Shown: one piece after another, positions 877 through 48,995 of the stretch | Numbering within the stretch: position 1 is the stretch's first letter | Layout of the letters: each line of letters begins with the position of its first letter | DNA from: Callorhinchus milii | Lineage: Eukaryota | Assembly: GCF_018977255.1 (NCBI RefSeq) | Contig: NW_024704742.1 | Location: 27,344,001-27,408,000 of the forward strand | Length of the DNA: 64,000 bases | Direction of reading: 5' to 3' | The notes under the pieces: model-generated | Seen by the model: only the letters and a program-made list of their open reading frames with translations | Told to the model about the DNA's origin: nothing | The model's database searches: none | Translations under genes and position numbers: made by a program

Positions 877-1620
877 TCCTGGTGGTGCTAGTCATCCATT
901 CCCCAGATAAAATTGCTCATTCACTTCATGGCTGTTTATGGGTTAAAACAGTGTTCAAATTGGCTATTGCATTCACCTGCAAAAGATGCTTCAGAGTATA
1001 TGCTGTGAAATTTTTTGAGATATCCTCCTGACTTGAAAGGTGCTGTATCAAATGTAAGATTTTTTTAAATGATATTCTTTTTGCTGCGGAGGAGGTTCAA
1101 GGAAACACTTGACAAGAAGCGTTCATGTTGTGTGCACTTGAATATTTTTGCTACCATGTTGCCTTGAGCACATAAACAGATGTACGCTTTTCATTACCAG
1201 GAATAAATTGGATGCTAATGTAGTGCTTTTGCTTATAGAAGCCAAGGTGAAACATTAACTCTTCTTACTAAGGTGCAGAGTGGGTTTCTTGCATTGTGAA
1301 ACATATTTAAGTTTTATTTACTGCTTCTACGATGGCAGAACAAATTTTATATCAACACAGCTACATTAAGTTGGAGAAAGGTTCATTCATCCTTTACAAA
1401 AGCTTGAGAATTTTAATTCTGGTCTTTATGCTCTTTGGAGAGTGTTATTTTAAGATAAAAAGATGCCAACGTGCAATATTTTACTCCCAATGTTCAAGCT
1501 CTTGGACAGTGTGGCATATATTAATGAACATGAATGGGATTCATAACATGGTTTCTTTTTGCAGAGGCTCTGCAGTCATTACAGAATTTTTTTCATTGAT
1601 CTCTTGTATTTACCCAACAG

Positions 1621-1725
1621 GAAGATATGAACCTCAATGAAGCACACAAGGCACCACTGAGAGACAAAGACTTAGCCACTAAACGGGAAATGGTCTTCCA
1701 GTACATCTGCACTGCTTCGAAGTCG
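1621..1725 (+). CDS. DIAPH3: Internal coding exon of a Diaphanous-related formin (GBD region): EDMNLNEAHKAPLRDKDLATKREMVFQYICTASKS
   Basis: Pyrimidine-rich acceptor ending CCCAACAG at 1620, donor TCG|GTAAGT at 1726, 105 nt, phase 0/0, no stops. The peptide matches the DIAPH GBD segment EDMNLNE..KAPLR.KD...K.EMV.QYI. The TASK ending resembles DIAPH3 (TASKT) more than DIAPH2 (ATAKS), from memory. The family call is strong; the paralog call is about 0.65. Confidence 0.88.
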
Positions 1726-2639
1726 GTAAGTGAGGCATGAATTTAAATCCAGCACATGTTAATAAACAAATTGTTTGAACACTGGAAATCTCATTTGTTA
1801 GACAGATTTATCTGCCTCTTCAGGTGGATGTTAAAGATCCCATTCAACTATTCGAGAAGAGAAAGGAACTTCTCCTGGTGCCCTGCCCAACAATCCCCTC
1901 ATTAAAATTGCTTTGTGGCTGTTTGCTAATTGGTTGCCACATTTGTCTATAAAATACCCAGTCACAACTTGTTACAGTCAATCCTGTGAGGCATTTTGAA
2001 TGCCTTCCCAACATGAAAGACACTGTATCAAATGCAAAGATTATTATTCTAAGATTAAGACTTTGGTTCGTGATGCTTTACCTGTGTGGCAACTGCAGTT
2101 CAGTGTGTTAGAGCGATAGGAAATGCAAGAGGGTACAGAACCACTCATTCATCTCTCTTGTGTGCAGCAATTTCGAGCCTTCCTTAGATTGCTTTCACAG
2201 CCCTCTGCTTAGCCTGCCAAAGGGATATGGGGAAAGAGCAGGGAAACGCAATTGAAAGGATTGTTCCTAAGTGCCAGCACAGACATGATGGGGCTGAATC
2301 GCCACCTTCTGTATTGTAAATCTCTGTAGTTCTACGACTTGTGCAGACTCCATTTTCTTCAGCGGATCCTGGTTTGGCTTTTGTGCTGTGAGACGCGTTT
2401 CCTCCTTCTCACGTTGGTCGATCCTTTCATACAACATTTCTGCTTCCACCTCATGTTTCCTCATTGAGTTGAGGTTGTCCTTGCTCAGTATACACGTGCT
2501 CAGTATATTTGTGCAGTAGCTCTGGCTTTTATTTAGCTGAAATCTTTTCTCCTTCCTTCGGCTGGTAATTTGACTCATTTCCCTGTGCCAAATAGAGTTC
2601 TATTTCTTTCTCTGAGTTGAAATGACAGAACGAACATAT

Positions 2640-7281: not shown

Positions 7282-10200
7282 TGAGGTCTCTATTGAGGCA
7301 GATTTGTAAATATTCTTTTTTAGATCCCTGACGTCTACTGAAACTCAGGAACTTGTGTTCCATGGGATGGTGAGATGTATGTCTTCTGCTGTAATTCTCC
7401 CCCAGGCAAGGCTCCTGATCTCAGATCTCAACATCGGAGTAATGTAGAACAGCAGCCAATTTGAATGAGGGAAAGACTAAAGGGAGAGTCACCCTTGACA
7501 GCTCTCATTGTTTCGTCCACAAAATATACACTTTACAGTACATTCTGTGAAGCACTTTAAGACATTATGAAGATGTGATAAGGCGCTATATCAAATGCAA
7601 GGATTATTATTTTCCTTGTGACTGTTTTCAGAATACCATTGACACAGTTAATGGTAGTAATGTTGTTGTTGTTCTGTGCAAGTAGGGATGAAAACAGCAA
7701 ATGAAAACAGTTGTAACTGGCTATTAAAGAGCCTGTGATGACTGCTGGCAAAGTCACAAGGCACTAAACACAAATAAATGTAAAAATCAAACAATTCTGT
7801 GATTGTTTGCAAAATCATACAATCATAAACAAACGCTGACCCCCTATAATTGTACACTGATTGTAAAATCATACGCAATCACTGACTCTCAGTACTTCAT
7901 TCATGCCTGTGCTGTACCTAGCCAACACTGTTGCCGCTTATTCTAATTCATTTCTTTGTTCTTTCTCTGTAGGCTTTCAAATTAAGTGTCTGACTAGCTC
8001 ACATTTAAATAACAGAGTTGAGTCAGATTCTATTGGGTAATGCATTCCACATCCTGATTAAAAACCTTTATGCAAAATAATTTTCTGCTGACTTTCTTCT
8101 TTTATGCTTCCAGTAATAATCTTGAGTTCATCATCGGAGCAGAAATAGACAATTTGGCGTCAAGTCCATTCTATCGTTTTGTTCTCTAATCTTGCATTTA
8201 AATTACCAAATGCCAAAAGTAATTTGCTTGTTTTTTACCTAAGGACATTAATGTAAGTGCTGAGCAGCAAACCGAGTTATTGGGGCATCTTGATGAAAGA
8301 ACTGTCTTTAAAAAGTAATCAATGGCTTAACTGCAAGCAGCCCATCTTAGTAAATGTCTCAGGAGACGTTTATCATGTGGCAGGGTTTTCCACATTCTGC
8401 TATCCTAGGATTTCACTGCACATCTTCAGGTGTGAACACATTGTTGTCAGTAATTGCTGATGTGCCATTACTCCTGTACAAAAACATCAGAAGCCCTGAA
8501 AAACAGAGTAATCACAAGGTGCAAAACTAATGGAGGAAACCAGGCAATGTAGTTTGTAAACCATGAAAACATAGTTTGTGAGGATTAATAAGGTCACAGA
8601 CTTCCACCCACCCTGCTTTGTTGCATCGTGAGACTGTCTCCTAATCACTTTGTGGGAACTTTGTGTTATTGTTTATAGTTTTGTTTGTGGGAGGATGATT
8701 TTGATCAGTTTCAGTGCCAGCAATGGATGACAGAGCGGATCGAAAGTGTCAGTGTTCTCTGTGCCCATGATGTGTAATAACCTTCACGTGAGAGGATTCA
8801 TGAATGGGAATATTATTGCTGCAAGTTTATTGAGAAAAATCTGCAGTTTACATGGCTTATGCATATTTTTCTATATACATTTTATATATATATACACACA
8901 AACATTTACCAAGTAATTAACTTGATGTGAAAAACGCCTAATTGTACCTGTCTATTACAGTAGCATGAGAAACCCTGTCTTATATTTTAAATTCTGTATG
9001 CTATGTGACTTGATCCTTGATTCTGAACTATGTGAAACCTCATGGAAGTTGCAATAATGCTGTGTAATGTGCACTAGTCATTGTTCATCCTGAGCCTAAC
9101 CAGCTTCCAGTAATAACAGGCATGATAGAGTCCCAAGAAGCTTTGTGAAATTCTCCAGCTATCTTCATGACATTAATTCCAAGCTAACATTGCTCTCTGG
9201 CTGTTTGTGCGAAGTGCAATGTTCCCCTCACTCACTAAGGAGGAAAACGGTGTCAAAACTGAACTGGGGGGGTTAGGAATTGTTCAGGTCACTAATGTTA
9301 AGTCTGTGTTGATGATAAAAATAATAATCCTTACATTTGACATAGCACTTTTCACATCTTCTAGACGTCTCAAAGCGCTTCACAGAATATGCTGTAAAGT
9401 GAATATTGTGGGCGAATGATGTATGTTGTAAACCATAGAATAGGCGGCAATAGGCGGTAAACCGGGATGTATGTTGGCATGAGTGGAATGTTGAGGGATC
9501 GCATTACAATGTGTGTTGCTTCCCCTGATATTGGTTCCTCTGCAAATTTGGAGTAAAATAATGGAAAACAAACCAAGTTACTACTTAAGGCCATTAAGGA
9601 GTCAGTCAGCCAGCTTTACTCAACCGAGCAGACACATTGACAGGGTGTTAGTAACGCCAGGTCAGAGCTGGTGCTTGAAAGCTTATCATCAGTGGACAGA
9701 TGTAAAGCAGCAATACCATGAACAGTGCCTGATGTGAAGTGCTTAGATGAATTTAGTGTCAAACAGGGATGCAGTGGCATTGATGTGAGCTGTAAATAGG
9801 GGCAAAGTAGTGCAAAACAGTTATTTTCCAGGATTGCTTTGGAACTCCCTCCTGCAGCTTCCCCCCCACCCCTTCCCATCTTGTTCAGGTTCCTAGTCAA
9901 TCTCCTTAAAGTGCTTTGAGATGTAATGCAACGTGAAAAGCATTAAATAAGTTCAACTTGTTGAATTTACATTTCCCGCATCAATTCACCCACTTGCATT
10001 CAAACTACCCTTTCTGGTCAATAGTTAAGTTTGAGATTTAATTAGTCGTCTGGTTTCCTGTGAGTTGATTCATTTTTAATACATTATCCTTCGTGGTTCT
10101 GGTGTTTAATTATTTTCAATGTAAAATATTCAAACGTGTCACAAGTCTGAGTGGAAAATGAGTTTAAAATTCTGTCACTCTCAACCTTAATTACAAGTCC

Positions 10201-11824: not shown

Positions 11825-12165
11825 TGGATTTACATTAGAATACATAACATTTGGCCCAACTGGTCTATGCCGGTGTTCATGCTCCCCATGAGCCTCCTCC
11901 TGCCCTTCTGTACTAAGCCTTCAAACATAACCTTCTATTCCTTTCTCCCTCATGTACCTATCTAGCTTCTCCTTAAATACATCTATGCTATTTGCCTCAA
12001 CAACACCTTGTGGTAGCACATTCCACATTCCCACTACTCTCTGTGTAAAGACATTTCTTCTAACTTCCATATTTGATCTCTTTGTGACTATTTTATATTG
12101 ATGGCCCCTGATTTTGATCTCCCCCACAAGTGGAAACATCTTCCCTATGTCTACCCTTTCAAGGT
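11825..12165 (-). mobile_element. CR1 LINE 3' fragment
   Basis: ORF 11921-12139 (-) reads MFPLVGE..RGHQYKI..FTQRVVGMWNVLP; highly similar to 48460-48810. Confidence 0.92.
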
Positions 12166-12318
12166 ACTAATTTAGGCTGAGATGTGTAAAATAAGTATTT
12201 GGTATTATCAATGTTTTCATCCACCATTACAAATGTGGAAACGTGTTGGAATATATGAATAATCCTTACATATAAGCACACTGGGATGCCTTTCACATCA
12301 GCAGAACAACTCCGATCA

Positions 12319-12650
12319 GGTGTCAACCTGGCTCAATTGCTGGCATTCTCACATCTGAATCAGAAGGTTGTTGGGTTCAAGTCCCACATTGGGACTTGAT
12401 ATTTGATCTCATAATATTGGCTGATACTCCATTGCAGTGCTGGGGGTGTGCTGCATTGTTGCAGGTGCAGTTTTTTGGATGAGATATTAAACCTGAGGTC
12501 CTGTCTGCTTGTTCGGGTGGTCGATAACGATCCCATGGCACTGTTCAAAAAGAGAAGGGAGTTTCTTCCAGTGTCCTGGCCAACCATACTCCAAATACAA
12601 TTGGTCACTCACCATGGCTATTTATGAGACATTGCTGTATTCAATAGGCT
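12319..12650 (+). mobile_element. Old Deu-domain SINE (SacSINE1/AmnSINE-like)
   Basis: tRNA-like head GTGTCAACCTGGCTCAATTG..TCAGAAGGTT..GGGTTCAAGTCCC and central GATCCCATGGCACTGTTC..GGGAGTTTC..GTGTCCTGGCCAA; shared with 31698, 53499 and 60216. Confidence 0.8.
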
Positions 12651-27300: not shown

Positions 27301-28139
27301 AACAAGAACCAGTTCCGACTGTTCCTGAGAGAATTCCCATTTTGCTGCGTTTGATAGATTGCTCATTCCTGCGACTCAGGCCGTTACTTCTGAGACTCAG
27401 GCTTGCTAATCCCCCTTGTGTGGGCAGAGCATTGCTGCACGATGATTCACTTGATCGAGTGCTCAAGACGTACATCAATCATACATACTTATGGATTGAC
27501 ATTCGCACAGTCTTAACAGAAACGTTCCCTTAAATGAGTCTGCATTAAGTGAGACTGGAAAGGGTGGATTTTTTTTATATTGTAATCACACAGGGTAGCA
27601 ATTCATAGATTACGATCTCTTCACCACAACCATCACCACCACATTCTCACCACCATCTGCGTTGCTGAACAAATTGCCGCATTGTGGGTGCTGTGCCAGC
27701 TCTGCGGTTATTCTTCATCATTCGGTTTAGTTGGCAGCAGCCTTTCCCTCGAGTAAGAAATGTACGGGTTCAAGGATGTGAAGCAAGATTGCCAGTACAG
27801 TATTGCACTAGATTGTTGAATTACAGCATCTCTTCAGTTGAGATTGATAAGTATCTGCTCGACGGCATTGTGTACAAGGCATCAGTACCGTGGTTGTATT
27901 TGATGCTCATATTAGGTAGAAAATATTTGCTTTTCCCAAAGGTGAAACAAGAATAGTTGTGAGCATGTATAGGAATAATCTTCACCTGTGTGTAGATAAA
28001 GTTTTCTCTTGTGACAAGCCTGTAAGCTCACTTGAGGGATCTTATGTTTTCTGGACTCAGTTGCAGTGTTCAAAATGTATTGTGATGGAAAATGTGACTT
28101 TTGACAACAGAATTCAAGTCAAAGTGATTTACAAAGGCG

Positions 28140-28382
28140 AAATATTTAATATTTTCACACAGAGAGTTGTTGGGACATGGAATGCCCTGCCAAGTAAGGT
28201 GGTCGAGGCAGAGTCCACAGTAGGTTTCAAGAGGAAGTGAATAGGTATATGAAAGACAGAAGCTTGAAGGGGTACGGGGATAAGACAGGGCAGTGGGATT
28301 GAATGAGCAGCTTGCTCTGATAGGCTGTGAAGTCTCAATGGGTCAAATGGTTGCCTTCTGCTCCTTCTTTGAATCTATGTCT
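28140..28382 (+). mobile_element. CR1 LINE 3' fragment
   Basis: Text FTQRVVGTWNALPSKVVEAES..FKRK followed by a CR1-type 3' UTR. Confidence 0.85.
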
Positions 28383-36004: not shown

Positions 36005-36250
36005 CAAGCCATTCAGTTCACCTCATCTGTTCTGGGGTTATATTCTACGTGAACTCCTCCCTCTCCTAAACACCTCTATTTCCTTTTTCCTCATGTGTAC
36101 ATCAAGATTCCTCTTAAACACGTTGATGCTTTTTGCTTCAATCACAGCTTCTGGTAATGACTTCGACATTCTCACCACCCTCTGTGTAAAGAAGGTTCTC
36201 CTAAACTGCCTTTTAGATTTGCCAACAGCTATCTGATATTTATGCCCCTT
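36005..36250 (-). mobile_element. CR1 LINE 3' fragment
   Basis: ORF 36038-36262 (-) reads KGHKYQI..FFTQRVVRM..LPEAVIEAKSINVFKRNLD. Confidence 0.88.
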
Positions 36251-39200
36251 TGAGACATTCAAGAGAGAATTAGATAGCTATTAGGGGAAATGATTGATTG
36301 AAGGGTATGAGAGATAAGAGTAGTACAGTGCAAGTTTTTTTTGCTTTGATGGCAGATAGATCGAAATGGTCTTTTTCAGGCCTCTGTTTTCCTTCATAAC
36401 TTGGCGTTAAAATGTAGATGGTGAAAGACTAAGTGACAGAAAGGGTTACACCCTCCGAGGGTGGAATGGAGATTAGATTGCAAAGAGCTCACTGGGGTGC
36501 CAGTTGCTGGCAGTACTAATTTACTCAGGTGCTGTCTGCATTGTCACCAGGAGTGGGGAGACAATCATTTCTGTCTCATGTAATGTAGTACTCGAAACTG
36601 AAAAGTATTCAAATGATTAGTTTGAAAGGGAATGGGCCTTTCAACTCCACTAGAATAAGAGTATGACTTGTCACACAATGCCGCTGCGCCTGACTAAATA
36701 ATGAAAGAAGAAAGCGAATACGTTTGCCAAAAACTTTACTAAACGTGACATAAGAAAAGCCCCAAAATAGCTGTCACCTTCATCCTTGTCACTTTCTGTC
36801 TTTTCAGTAAAGAATTCCTCACATATCTTGTATCTATTTCATCCAATTCATATGACACCAAAGGCAGGAAAAGATCTTCATTATGTTAAATTTATGGACT
36901 TGGTTACATTTTTTTCAATGGAGGTTATTATTTAAATGATGCTATGATGGGAAGACTATAGGTTGGGTGTTCTGGGAGGATGAGATCAAACGAGCCTTCT
37001 TTATTCTGAACCAATCTTGTGATCCTGTGATTTGCGGTCTCTTTTGCTATGTTATAATAATGCAATAATAATCCTTGCATTTGATATAGTACCTTATCAC
37101 ACCTTCAAAACGTCTTGAATCGCTTCACAGAATATACTGTAAAGTGAATTGTATGTTGTGTAGGGTTACCCTTTCCTAGGGACGAATTAACCTCTCAATC
37201 CTCACCCAAGAGTCTGTTCTTTGTGTGTGAGCCTGGAGATGGGATATCGGGCAGGTTATTCATTTGTGAGGCTTTAACAGCCCAATACTCTGGCTAACAT
37301 TTGTTTTCTAGCTCTGGAGGAACCCTGGCTAAAAATTTTGTTCCCCCATCACTCTTCCAAGCCCAGGGTTCTAAGGCAATCTGAATGATTGAAGGCAATC
37401 TGACTCGTGCTCTGAAATGCTGTCTGGTGTGAAGCACTCTATATAAATGCAAGTTGTAGATGTTGTTGTTGATTGTTCATCATGTATCGAGCCTTTTGGG
37501 CTTGATCAGCCAAAGAGAGGGAGAAGACAACGGAGCCAAGCTGACACACATAAATAGTGCAAAAATAGAATAAATCTAGACCTGGGTGAAATTTCTACAC
37601 ATAAGAGAGCAGGGATTCCCTATAGGAAAAGGAGTAATAATAAATGACTTGTCTCAATATGCATCCTATGCTATTATGAAGCTACATTATCACTTCAAAA
37701 GAAACTTCTCTCTCAGGGTAGCTTATCCTTTGCATGTAAATCCATTCACGAGAGATGTCTATTCTTCCTGCCATTCCATGGATCTATCTGTCTGTTGGGT
37801 TACTGCAAGCTTCTCTATTTGACCATTCTGTCTTCATATTTATCCTTCAGTTTGGCTAATCCATCTATTCACATGTTCGTTCATTGCTTTGCCTGCCCTA
37901 TTTATTATACAGCATCTGACAAACCTAAGTGTCCCTAATTATTGAGAACTCAACAATGTTTAGTTGTTGACTACTTATTTATTTGGTAACCTTGCTTATC
38001 TGCCCATATTTGTATCTGTGTCGAATGTCTGTGAATCTGTCCCTGCGTGTGGCCTAACAATTAAGGACCCCTTAAAGGTCAATTATCGACACCTTAAAGG
38101 TCTCCATTATTGATGCATGAATCCTGAGACCAGTGTTGACCACTGTTAAGGTATGATTGTGATGCATATTTATACTTTTTAAAAAAAATGCATCAGAAAA
38201 CATTCATCACAAATGACTTATTTCACTGTAAAATTATTGCTGGAATAAAAAATTTAAACAGTCCCCAGGCAAAAGAGTGTATAGTGTAAGAAGTTGTTAG
38301 GATTTTAAATATTCACCCGTCTACTGGATGATTCCTTCAGGTGGTGCGACTTTGATGCTTTGTTTCAAATGTAAAATTACTCTCAGCGAAAATTGATGGT
38401 TTGGAATATCTTTAGTTAATAATTTACAAATAGTTCCAGTGTTTAGAAAGAGCTGCAAGTGATTTTCATGCAGTAATGTGCCAGAAGCCTTCAATCACTG
38501 CTATTTATTACATATGTTAATAGCATATTTGTATGCACACAAAATCTCTTAGTGACTCATTTTCTTATCAGAATTTTCTTGGGGGAAAAAGAGAAATTTT
38601 ATATTGAACTGTCATGTCTCTGTATCTCCAAAAGTAAATGTAAGGCTTAGCGGACTCTGAATTTGCATCTTCAATGTTTCTCTGTAGAGGCTGTTTTTAG
38701 TAATATATAATTAAGTGTAGAGTTCTCTATGTTCTTTACAACACAGATTTTTTGAATGAAGTGATAGCAACATTTTAACCAAGTCTTTTTGTGCCAGTTT
38801 TCCTCTGTTTGAAAAACTGACACAAGCATCCATGAAGGTTAGGACACCCAGGCAAGGGAAGACTGACAGAGATGTTCTGGGGGAGCACCTCATGTAGTTG
38901 ACTCCAGCAATTGAATGAAACAATTTAACAAGCGGTGATGTTGTTCAACAACAACTTGCATTTACATAGCACCCTTCAGACCGCACGGCATCTCGGAGCG
39001 CTGTTCCTTGTGAGCTCACAAGGTGTGCTTTTGGAATGTATTTATCTTACTGATAGTTACCGGGGAATATCTGAGGTCAATCTCATCAAGTGGTCCATTG
39101 ACTGGAAAGATGGTTCCTTTCTAATCACACAAAGCTCTGCATTATTCTTACATAATGTATTCAGCAGGGTTGCCAGGTGGGTGGGGTGGGGGGGAGGGGA

Positions 39201-41805
39201 TAGATTTGCCATGATTCTGTGACCAACGGTGGGTGTCATGATGGACACTGACAACCTGAGTGATCCGGGCAGTTAATGCAGGATGACATTCCCACTGGAG
39301 GATTAATGATTAATGAGACAGTCACGACAAGTTTCTTGAGCAGTGATCCGTGATTATTAACAGTAGGTAACCCACTCAGTATATATTGTCAAGAGAATAA
39401 TGATTTACCTGTGAGTCATTACTAGGTGGCAGACTTACTGGTGATTTCAGATGAGGTCAAAGCAGTCCATTTTGGTGGGGGGGGAGGCGTGGCTGGATTA
39501 GGATTTGAGTGTGTTTTGCACCAGGTTGGGGTTGGCTGCGGGGGGACAGGTTGGAAATGCAAAAGACAGGCTGCAGCATGGTCCAGGGTCTTAGGCTGGC
39601 TCTCGCCTCAGGGCTCATCAGTCTCTGCACCATTCAGTGGCAGTTCTTTGATAGCATAAGTTACTCTATTATTCACAAAATACATCCCAGGCATTCTTTG
39701 GTGGTGGGGGGAAGATGGAATCTATTGCTTGTGTCAAAAAATCAGAGGACAGAATTGAAGGGGACAAATATTGCCACATACCTCCCTTCCCCAGCCGCCC
39801 CCCACCTCCACACACACGCAAGTCAATTTGATGCAAATTGCTAAAAGTCGGGATATTTTTGGAACATTAAAATAAGCCCTCAAGTGTTTTCTGCTCAAAT
39901 GAATGATGATCTGAACGCACCTCGACATTGTTCACAGCACAACAAACTGTAAACAGTGAGCTATTCTGGCTCCAGGTAAGGCACTTGGCAGATGAATGAG
40001 TCCTGACGCACCTTACATCTGTACAGAGCTGCTCTAAGCTCATCTGTCCGCTGTTGTAAATTTCAGAGGTCATCTCAGAGCATGAGATCCGTGTGTCAAT
40101 CGGCAGGAATCGGCATCCAAAACCTATACCTTAGATGCTAAGAAAGTCAGGTAATTTAGGGTTTTTCTGAGAAGAAAGTTTTTTTTAATCAAAAAAAGGT
40201 ATTTTATGGTGAAAAACTATTGAACTCAAGGACATTGTTCTTGAACACAATGTTTGTGTTGACATCACAGTGTGATTCAGATTTATATTATTATTTTATT
40301 TTGTTAAAGTGCAGGAAATTTACTATTTATGTTTCAATACAAAGGCAGCCCTTTGAATTAAGATCTTCAGAGAATTAGTACCTTATTTATTTGCTTTGCG
40401 TGAATAAATTGGTTATTTGGCTCCGAGAGAATTGAAGGGAGGGAGTGGATGTATTTAGGAAGCCATAGCTGGAAGCTTATAACAGTAATAATTCTTGCAT
40501 TTGATAGAGAGCCTTAGTACATTGTTGACATCTCAAAGCACTTCACAAGATTTTATTGTGAAGTGACTGTGTATTTTGTAGGAAGCCAATTTGTACACAG
40601 AAATGTTCCACAAACAACTATGAAGTGAGTGACTGGGCGATTGTTGGCCAGGACACCGGGAGAAACTCTCATCTCTTTTTGAATAGTGCCAGGGGGTCTT
40701 TAATGTCCACCTGAATAGGCAGCACTCCCTCAACCTTCAGGTTGGTGGGTATTCAGATGGACAGTTGGGTTAAAGGGAACACATTTTTTTGGCTGGTTTG
40801 AAGACTTTAGCCTTATTTGGAGGCTTTTGTGTTTGCAGATTGAATACCAAATCTGTGGTGGTTCCCTATAACCATATCGTGTGTGTGGGATTGGTGTTAT
40901 TGTCTGTGATTTAGAGCCACAGAAATGTATGACATAGTAGGAAGCCATTCAACCCAGTTTTTGTGATTATGTTTGCTCCACCAAGAAGCCATCCATCCTA
41001 ATCCAAATTCCCCTTAACCTCTAACATTCTTCCTCTGCCTGCTCTTGTCTGATTCACTCGTACATAAATCAAGCAAAGCAGTTTTGAAACAAATCTCCAC
41101 CGATGAAATACATGAGACTTACAACATATTCACATCAGTGAATTTTCTTGTGGTCTCAAATAATCTGCTAATAGAGTAGGTACAGTCTTATAATCAAAAA
41201 CTCTGCAGGACCCATGTCAGAAAGTTGAAATGCTCTGTATCCTGTGTCATGCTCCTGTGCTTTCACTTAAAAAAAACAATTTAAAAGTAAATGAAATCAC
41301 TATTTGTATAACCATTTAGAAATGATGCGATCTTATGTTTTTATGGTGCTTTCTTACATTGAAACATCGCATAGGCAATGTCTAGTAAAGTGATTGCTTT
41401 TTGTAGACAAATGTGCAGCCATTTTGTGCACAAGGAAAGGACCCACAAACAGCTGTCAAGAGAGTGATCATTTAATCTGAAGGATTTGGCCATGACACTG
41501 GGAGAAGCTCCCTTCTCTTTTTCAATGGTGCAATGGGATCCTTAACATACATCACAACAAGCAGGTGGACTTCTTGGTTTAACGTCTAATCCAAAATGTG
41601 CTGCCGTATATTTTGCATGTATTTTGCATGTCTGCTCTCATAACAAATGGACCTAACATGGGTTTAAAGCCTTGTTGGGTATTATTTGGGTAAACTATTG
41701 TTGTGGATTTTTTTTTCTTTTGTAGTTAACATGTTTTGTTTCTCTCTCTCTTTCTTTGGTTTGATGCGGTGGATTTCCTGTTCTTTTGTCCACTTGGGAA
41801 ACAAG

Positions 41806-41811
41806 GTGCTG
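41806..41811 (+). CDS. Candidate 6-nt microexon GTGCTG (Val-Leu) of the DIAPH gene
   Basis: AAG acceptor at 41803-41805 and strong donor CTG|GTAAGT at 41812. A long AG-free pyrimidine tract runs 41726-41802, with a TTAAC branch-like motif and a TGC. Frame-preserving for a phase-0 intron. Confidence 0.5.
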
Positions 41812-42272
41812 GTAAGTGAGGATTTTCATTCTTAGCCTTCATATTACTGAGCTGAAGTAATGGTGATCCTTGTTGTTTTCTTGGTTTCCATTACGTTTCC
41901 AACCATCCATTCAGCATTTAGGCTGAGTGCAATAGAGCAGTTTGATATGGGAATCAGGAAATGTTTCAGTGATGTATTACATTACTGAATATTGCTTATT
42001 TGAAATGTTTCTACCACTTCCTTTCTGCCTGTAATTGCAGTGTATAGATTGAACGACTGGAAGATTGCATAAGTTTTCCTTGATGCATTTTGCAATGTTT
42101 GTTTTAATACTCGGCATACTTTTGCGCTGTGTGCTTCACCTCTGGCAATGAAACTTCATTTTATTATTGAACGACTGGAAGTCTACCAAAGGTGTCATGC
42201 TCCAGACTGCTGATTAATAGTGCCCCCCGATTTGTCCACCACAGCAGCTCTATTGTGAAGTACTAGCTAGAA

Positions 42273-48459: not shown

Positions 48460-48995
48460 TAGAATACATTAGAATATACAGCACAGAAACAGGCCATTTG
48501 GCCCAACTGGTCTATGTCGGTGTTTATGCTCCACATGAGCCTCCTCCTGCCCTTCCTCAACTAAGCCTTCAAGCATAACCTTGTATTCTTTTCTCCCTCA
48601 TGTACCTATCTAGCTTCCCCTAAAATACATCTATGCTATTTGCCTCAACAACTCCTTGTGGTAACATGTTCCACATTCCCACTACTCTCTGTGTGAAGAA
48701 ATTTCTTCTAACTTCCCTGTTTGATCTATCTGACTATTTTATATTGATGGCCCCTCGTTTTGGTCTCCCCTACAAGTGGAAACATCTTCCCTATGTCTAC
48801 CCTATCAAAGCCTTTCATAATTTTAAAGACCTCTATCAGGTCACCCCTTACCCTCCTCTTTTCAAGAGGAAAGAGTCCAAGCATGTTTAGCCTTTCCTGA
48901 TAGGTATAACCTCTCAGTTCTGGGATCATTCTTGTGAATCTCCTTTGCACCTCTCCAGTGCCTCTACATCCCTTCTATAATGTGGGAACCAGAAC
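48460..48995 (-). mobile_element. CR1 LINE 3' fragment
   Basis: ORF 48726-48950 (-) reads QRRFTRMIPELRG..YQERL..LGLFPLEKRRVRGDLIEVFKIMKGFDRVD; 3' UTR shared with 11825. Confidence 0.95.

Follow-up and report, generated by a model that had tools for sequence, protein, structure and literature searches.

Can an exon of only six bases, lying deep inside a giant intron, be used, and if it is, by what route is it made? The question is raised by a stretch of 64,000 nucleotides from the chimaera Callorhinchus milii, hereafter the window (C1:27344001-27408000 of the 991.5-Mb assembly; coordinates without a prefix are positions in the window), which carries part of a diaphanous-related formin gene. 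An earlier reading of the letters of this DNA, referred to below as the original prediction, had pointed to the six bases GTGCTG at 41806-41811, within a formin intron, as a candidate microexon or, alternatively, as a recursive splice site. Our analysis leads us to regard 41806-41811 as a genuine 6-nt cassette microexon of this diaphanous-related formin gene, with a probability of about 0.88. Aligners and gene predictors usually miss exons of six bases, and the 41806 case would be one in which such an exon was predictable from sequence alone and was then confirmed.

RNA contigs across the six bases

Only one other formin exon, at 1621-1725, was found in the 64-kb window by motif scan and tblastn. 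It matches diaphanous proteins with a tblastn E value of 4.7e-13, is covered by the spliced contigs of two sequencing runs (X1 and X2, see below) and is part of the GTPase-binding domain of diaphanous-related formins. The next exon lies beyond the window at C1:27621291-27621424 (its start being L015:1516), begins GGGCAGAAGAGCACC and codes for GQKSTSDCVKSPQIYIYELKSG. Between the two extends a phase-0 intron of 275,565 nt which the microexon splits into pieces of 40,080 and 235,479 nt, in agreement with the depth of about 40 kb originally given for the site. The features on which the argument turns are the following.

1621-1725 (+): upstream formin coding exon, coding for EDMNLNEAHKAPLRDKDLATKREMVFQYICTASKS, phase 0 at both ends; identified by tblastn and RNA contigs, single copy
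1726-1735 (+): GTAAGTGAGG, the upstream exon's donor, with which the 275,565-nt intron opens; from the sequence
41804-41805 (+): AG serving as acceptor of the microexon and the first to follow an AG-free zone; from the sequence and the RNA contig
41806-41811 (+): probable microexon GTGCTG, coding in frame for Val-Leu; present between both flanking exons in the X2 RNA contig, its site unique in the scanned intron
41812-41821 (+): donor of the microexon, GTAAGTGAGG, strong, beginning the remaining part of the intron; from the sequence

Public runs were searched with window positions 1540-1800, and the contigs of four of them (X1, X2, X7 and X8) were placed on 1300-2000. The share of sampled words held was 0.29 in X1 and 0.24 in X2, about the exonic share, and 1.00 in X3-X6, four runs that are presumably DNA. 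X1 and X2 belong to one study (P1); X7 and X8 leave exon 1621-1725 without cover and are uninformative.

The evidence that carries the microexon is a contig of X2 (record 9; 325 nt, depth 28.7), which aligns to 1620-1727. The 30 letters listed for it before 1620 code for ...EVMALFEKML, which is the previous exon, and beyond 1727 it runs on as GCTGGGGCAGAAGAGCACCAGTGATTGTGT, that is, GCTG followed by GGGCAGAAGAGCACCAGTGATTGTGT. These last 26 letters match the start of the next exon exactly, and the aligned GT (1726-1727) together with GCTG yields GTGCTG. The X2 molecule is thus the previous exon, exon 1621-1725, GTGCTG and the next exon, in that order. It carries the junction AAGTCG-GTGCTG-next exon that the original prediction implied and keeps exactly GTGCTG between the exons, as expected if Val-Leu alone is inserted. 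The contig joins three exons by splicing, and exon 1621-1725 and the next exon are both single copy in the assembly; it therefore represents RNA and not a retrocopy.

The corresponding contig of X1 (151 nt, depth 4.1) stops at ...TCGGT, which fits either the included form or unspliced RNA but not a skipped form, in which ...TCGGG would be read. Over the exon, the depth in each run is that of a single contig, with no other contig on it, and the included form is the only form assembled in the two covering runs. A skipped-form contig was found in neither X1 nor X2, in an assembly of a kind that drops rare variants.

The six bases do not come from the neighbouring splice sites, because GTAAGT opens the intron past 1725 and TTTCAG immediately precedes the next exon. 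The intron was scanned to C1:27608000 and over its last 1,515 nt, together 263,790 of its 275,565 bases (95.7%), and in this part AGGTGCTGGT occurs once, at 41804, which is also the only place of AG|GTGCTG|GT. A genome-wide pattern search for AGGTGCTGGTRAGT returned 22 places, and the 41804 site is the only one of these inside the whole intron.

Splice-site layout and the route of splicing

The segment at 41804-41817, AAG|GTGCTG|GTAAGT, is short and bounded by AG and GT, and 41804-41821 reads AAG|GTGCTG|GTAAGTGAGG. The donor at 41812 matches the consensus at 8/9 positions from -3 to +6 (our count). The ten bases of GTAAGTGAGG occur in the window at 1726 and 41812 only, as the claimed identity with the donor of the upstream exon demands; the expected number is 0.12, and none of 100 shuffles gives two. 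Upstream of the acceptor lie three further features.

41614-41630 (+): two TGCATG hexamers, 11 nt apart, 174-190 nt 5' of the acceptor; RBFOX-like by look
41726-41730 (+): TTAAC, candidate distal branch point where the AG-free zone begins, on the border of the AG exclusion zone
41726-41803 (+): AG-free zone of 78 nt, with a (TC)n-rich core, TCTCTC and a single TGC

On re-reading the sequence, the tandem TGCATG, the TTAAC and the AAG|GTGCTG|donor string all lie where they had first been placed, and the U/C-rich tract is indeed free of AG, its length being 78 nt rather than the 77 nt first given. The last AG 5' of the acceptor is at 41724-41725, and TTAAC adjoins it directly. Pyrimidines make up 83% of the (TC)n-rich core at 41731-41760 and 68% of the AG-free tract overall; TCTCTC is found at 41741-41750, and the sole TGC of the zone at 41765-41767, 36 nt before the AG. 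In the final 17-20 nt before the AG, which include 'cttgggaaaca', the pyrimidine share falls to 53-55%, and it is for this reason that the acceptor looks weak.

Taken by itself this layout is unconvincing, as each motif singly is not rare. AG-free gaps of at least 78 nt are frequent, numbering 160 in 264 kb and taking up 6.1% of it, and a filter demanding at least 70% pyrimidine in the 40 nt upstream did not select the 41804 site. On the + strand of the window there are 20 copies of TGCATG, compared with about 15.6 under uniform composition. Those at 41614-41619 and 41625-41630 each lie in an 11-nt unit, tattttgcatg, repeated in tandem, and form one of the two close pairs (at most 20 nt apart) in 264 kb. 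It is the RNA evidence that makes the site more than chance.

A plausible course of events can nevertheless be outlined. A distal branch point in the TTAAC region would be followed by the 78-nt AG-free, UC-rich tract, and on this account the spliceosome would take the first downstream AG (41804-41805) despite its purine-rich immediate context. The near-consensus donor CTG|GTAAGT would recruit U1, and UCUCUC...UGC, an element of the type bound by SRRM3/4-type factors, may help to define an exon that is too short to be defined in the ordinary way. Joining to the upstream exon would re-create only a poor donor, TCG|GTGCTG, matching 4/9 consensus positions by our count, which is why the six bases would be kept and not recursively removed.

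This arrangement recalls the SRRM3/4-dependent neural and endocrine microexons of 3-27 nt. Those sensitive to SRRM3/4 are described, in an extract of a preprint (10.1101/2024.09.17.613571), as having a strong donor, a distal branch point and pyrimidine tract, a weak acceptor and UCUCUC...UGC. The candidate resembles them in size, frame, strong donor, distal tract, weak acceptor and UCUCUC...UGC, and the original prediction, which had called the layout typical of SRRM4-type microexons, agrees with that extract as regards the UGC, the UC-rich tract and the strong donor. It differs in that the UGC lies relatively far from the AG, and the likeness is one of sequence layout alone. A neuronal microexon has reportedly been described in DAAM1, a formin of the diaphanous-related type (Polinski et al. 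2025); DAAM1 is a different gene from that carrying the 41806 exon.

Several points weigh against a genuine exon. The RNA support is thin, comprising one full contig (X2) and one compatible truncated contig (X1) from one study; the RNA status of both runs was only a guess, the spliced structure being the reason for calling them RNA; and a skipped isoform may exist unseen, given that contigs drop rare variants. A part of the intron, C1:27608001-27619775 (11,775 nt, 4.3%), lay outside the scan with AGGTGCTGGT for weaker donors. The acceptor context is poor, with pyrimidines at 9/17 positions from -4 to -20, and local RNA folding around the microexon is not unusual (z = +0.67). The sole UGC is 36 nt from the AG, compared with 4 and 16 nt in a DIAPH2 exon on C15 that is discussed below. 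Moreover, the mechanism, including the branch point, the scanning for AG and the splicing factors, is one that we only infer.

If the exon is real it need not be made in a single step. In a two-step route, which concerns how the microexon is made and not its existence, a longer exon starting at 41806 would be joined by way of a cryptic downstream donor, and use of the internal donor at 41812 would then leave 6 nt. A 6-nt exon between introns of 40 kb and 235 kb should be hard to define directly, the microexon begins with GT so that the site has the form AG|GT, and an extract of Blazquez et al. 2018 (PMC6224609) describes experiments in which part-spliced transcripts make use of a donor 6 nt after a junction, a 6-nt microexon being the result. 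On the other side, in human cells internal donors of this sort are, according to the same extract, repressed by the exon junction complex, and by eye there is no convincing downstream donor in 41822-42000, where the candidates (for example AA|GTAATG near 41858) are unscored. We consider the two-step route unlikely.

A pure recursive site, or ratchet point, would use the AG|GT at 41805/41806 to remove the intron in two pieces, with nothing left in the mRNA. Such a reading is encouraged by the juxtaposition of AG and GT (41804-41807) deep in an intron of this length, and recursive splicing is known in long vertebrate genes (PMC6224609, in an extract citing Sibley et al. 2015). However, GTGCTG is retained in the one contig crossing the junction, and recursion requires, according to the same extract, that the re-created donor be strong and win against the downstream one, whereas here it is the donor 6 nt downstream that scores 8/9 and the re-created one that scores 4/9. 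Since the six bases stay in the RNA, strict recursive splicing, which had been offered as the alternative to a microexon, is not supported; pure recursive splicing is largely refuted as the main outcome, and we rate it as very improbable.

The microexon is formally a recursive splicing exon (RS-exon), because it starts with GT. It shares with RS-exons and with microexons whose internal donors are repressed by the exon junction complex, as presented in the extract of Blazquez et al. 2018 (PMC6224609), the GT re-created at the junction, and with the 6-nt reporter of that work a strong donor 6 nt after the junction, here at 41812. It differs in having a poor re-created donor and in being retained as an exon. 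With a poor re-created donor and a near-consensus donor six bases on, the rules given in that extract favour keeping the exon.

That 41806-41811 is an inert, splice-like chance motif, the six RNA bases deriving from another site in the intron, from an allele or from an assembly artefact, is scarcely credible: every motif alone is common and 4.3% of the intron lay outside the scan for weak donors, but the number of AGGTGCTGGT sites to be expected by chance in those 11,775 nt is about 0.01 (11,775/4^10, our calculation), the 41806 site was predicted ahead of seeing the RNA, and the insert matches at 6/6 bases with flanks that match both exons exactly.

The host gene and the DIAPH2 insert exon

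The host gene belongs to the diaphanous-related formins by the sequence of its GTPase-binding and FH3 domains. The next exon is 100% identical to a Callorhinchus milii UniRef fragment of 103 amino acids, P0229, in which PF06371 is present and which matches mDia1 structures with an E value of 3.8e-31. No public protein model other than P0229 was found for this stretch of the gene, and P0229 does not join exon 1621-1725 to the next exon. No relatives of P0229 more than 70% identical were found among the longer proteins searched.

The same model opens with SIKTSPS joined to the next exon. These seven codons are encoded at C1:27606014-27606034, in the same intron and about 15 kb upstream of the next exon, with a stop codon before them and GTGAGT after them, and they could represent either an alternative first exon or a property of the P0229 gene model.

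Four diaphanous-formin loci (G000) were found in the genome, and they are listed here with identities that are means over tblastn pieces.

C1:27.345-27.724 Mb (+): the window's gene, 55-59% identical to all queries; apparently a fourth paralogue
C4:29.148-29.253 Mb (-): DIAPH3-like locus; best named match a Varanus DIAPH3-like protein, 71.4%
C13:18.303-18.314 Mb (+): DIAPH1-like locus; best named match a shark DIAPH1-like protein, 68.2%
C15:6.082-6.147 Mb (-): DIAPH2 locus; best named match carp DIAPH2, 82.8%

The original prediction had taken the microexon to be homologous with an insert at the same junction of DIAPH2, but the host gene is not the orthologue of DIAPH2. Carp DIAPH2 is 82.8% identical to the C15 locus and only 55.3% to the window's gene. 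A maximum-likelihood tree was built from 20 rows, the four loci entering as query-anchored pieces, and was rooted at the midpoint only. In it the DIAPH1 group has the window's gene as its sister (support 99/99); C13 groups within DIAPH1 itself, C15 within DIAPH2, and C4 together with the DIAPH3-like rows. The host gene therefore seems, on this sequence comparison, to be a fourth diaphanous paralogue and not a DIAPH2 orthologue. Searches for close relatives turned up no chondrichthyan orthologue of it, and a literature search on DIAPH1/2/3 and whole genome duplication yielded no paper on a fourth DIAPH paralogue. Such a gene bears on the evolution of the diaphanous family after the vertebrate genome duplications.

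Val-Leu is inserted between ...ICTASKS and GQKSTSD.... This junction aligns to about chain positions 55-58 of 1z2c_B and 3eg5_B, mDia1 fragments with RhoC and Cdc42, just ahead of where the shorter mDia1 constructs 2f31, 2bap and 3obv start aligning. The alignment thus places the two residues in the linker that leads from the GTPase-binding subdomain, which binds Rho, to the autoinhibitory (inhibitory/armadillo) domain of the formin. The same spot carries a conserved optional insert of seven amino acids in DIAPH2 of mammals, birds, reptiles, frogs and fishes, and for this reason the linker looks like a recurrent point of tuning by splicing.

The existence of that DIAPH2 insert, given in the original prediction as IVGSKVT, is borne out by database proteins, which show IVGSKVT and related forms. 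In a survey of the junction in 216 protein clusters (P0110-P0325), 134 have no insert, 36 carry IVGSKVT, 22 IVGSKVP, 8 IVGSKVM and one IIGSRVP; two have other inserts and 13 were not matched by the pattern used. ITGSKVA is present at the junction in 5/109 representatives, and the named fish and frog DIAPH2 proteins have ITGSKVA, ITGSKVP, ITGSKAM, ITGSKAA or ITGSKAL. A degenerate pattern for the 21-nt exon matches 29 places in the genome, one of which, C15:6140625-6140649 (-), lies in the corresponding DIAPH2 intron. The chimaera sequences to be compared are therefore these.

C15:6140627-6140647 (-): canonical DIAPH2 insert exon (L050), cag|ATAACTGGTAGCAAGGTCTCG|gtgagt, coding for ITGSKVS; recognised by sequence pattern, about 6.1 kb after the upstream DIAPH2 exon
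41791-41811 (+): the 21 nt that end at the microexon donor, CAC TTG GGA AAC AAG GTG CTG, translating as HLGNKVL; possible relic of a longer ancestral microexon

The microexon resembles the vertebrate DIAPH2 21-nt exon, with its insert I-[V/T/I]-G-S-[K/R]-[V/A]-x, in lying at the same junction, in phase 0 and deep in a long intron. The DIAPH2 junction falls after ...AKS and before GGLK.../GQKS..., as it does in the fourth paralogue, and the internal AAG|GT, the Val-x at the end of the insert and a long upstream AG-free zone (85 nt in C15 and 78 nt here) are common to both. In contrast, the DIAPH2 exon includes 21 nt and the microexon only 6 nt, in a different paralogue, and UGC stands 4 and 16 nt before the AG in the C15 copy but 36 nt before it here.

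It is tempting to conclude that an insert exon predates the vertebrate genome duplications and survives both as the 21-nt exon of DIAPH2 and as a remnant in the fourth paralogue of the chimaera. We hold this reading tentatively, at rather less than even odds. The remnant would have lost an original acceptor some codons upstream; the next AG, the first after the AG-free zone, would then have been used, and the exon would have shrunk in frame to its last 6 nt (AAG|GTGCTG).

In favour of descent, both exons lie behind a long AG-free zone, and the junctions agree in position (after ...SKS, before G-x-K) and in phase 0. The 21 nt ending at 41811 do translate as HLGNKVL with no AG in front ('tc' precedes), as first reported; this peptide has G, K and V in common with the DIAPH2 insert, and the two kept codons, Val-x, are like the end of that insert. 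Of the proposed homology between HLGNKVL and the insert, then, the shared junction, phase and G-x-K-V stand, and the similarity itself is weak. Only 10/21 bases match the C15 exon, the peptide score of 3/6 is reached by 3/116 GTRAGT sites in the intron, and an alignment of 160 nt of flank with the C15 exon is not significant, 25/300 shuffles scoring as well. Nor is the motif G-[SNT]-[KR]-V-x followed by GT significant, with two occurrences in 264 kb compared with about 1.5 expected (our calculation). The tree also tells against descent, in that under it the exon must have been lost from the lines of DIAPH1 and DIAPH3 or else gained twice independently.

A second GSKV-like string in the window, at 8731-8751 (QSGSKVS|GTGTTC), was set aside as a chance match; it has a poor donor and no pyrimidine tract and differs from the RNA.

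Inserts of two amino acids at the same junction occur in two protein models, KS-VR-GLKN in the hagfish Eptatretus burgeri (P0394) and KS-VS-GGLR in the cyprinid Sinocyclocheilus (P0328). They are ambiguous, because six bases read into a GTAAGR/GTAAGT intron give V-R or V-S, and either could be an artefact of its model or the trace of a microexon not yet placed. If common descent were true, the VR insert of the hagfish would be a third trace of the insert exon. For human DIAPH2, a paper on a melanoma cell model mentions in its Discussion, seen in an extract, an in-frame small exon of 3-6 bp (PMC8632122), and a literature search for DIAPH2 microexons found no paper describing the 41806 exon.

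Repeats elsewhere in the window

About 35 nt just downstream of the conventional formin exon, at 1804-1851, are covered in all four runs placed there by short RNA contigs numbering in the hundreds, with a summed contig depth of up to 19,512. They belong to a repeat, and its conceptual peptide (..VD[VI]KDP..L[FL][EK]K..) recurs near 12568 (+), 40659 (-), 41501 (-) and 53667 (+), and the repeat looks like an abundant element of the short interspersed nuclear element type. Elsewhere, at 101-764, there are open frames like the reverse-transcriptase tails of retroelements of the long interspersed nuclear element type (..FTQRVV..WN.LP..), and akin fragments are found at 11921-12166 (-), 28100-28240 (+), 36038-36277 (-) and 48726-48974 (-).

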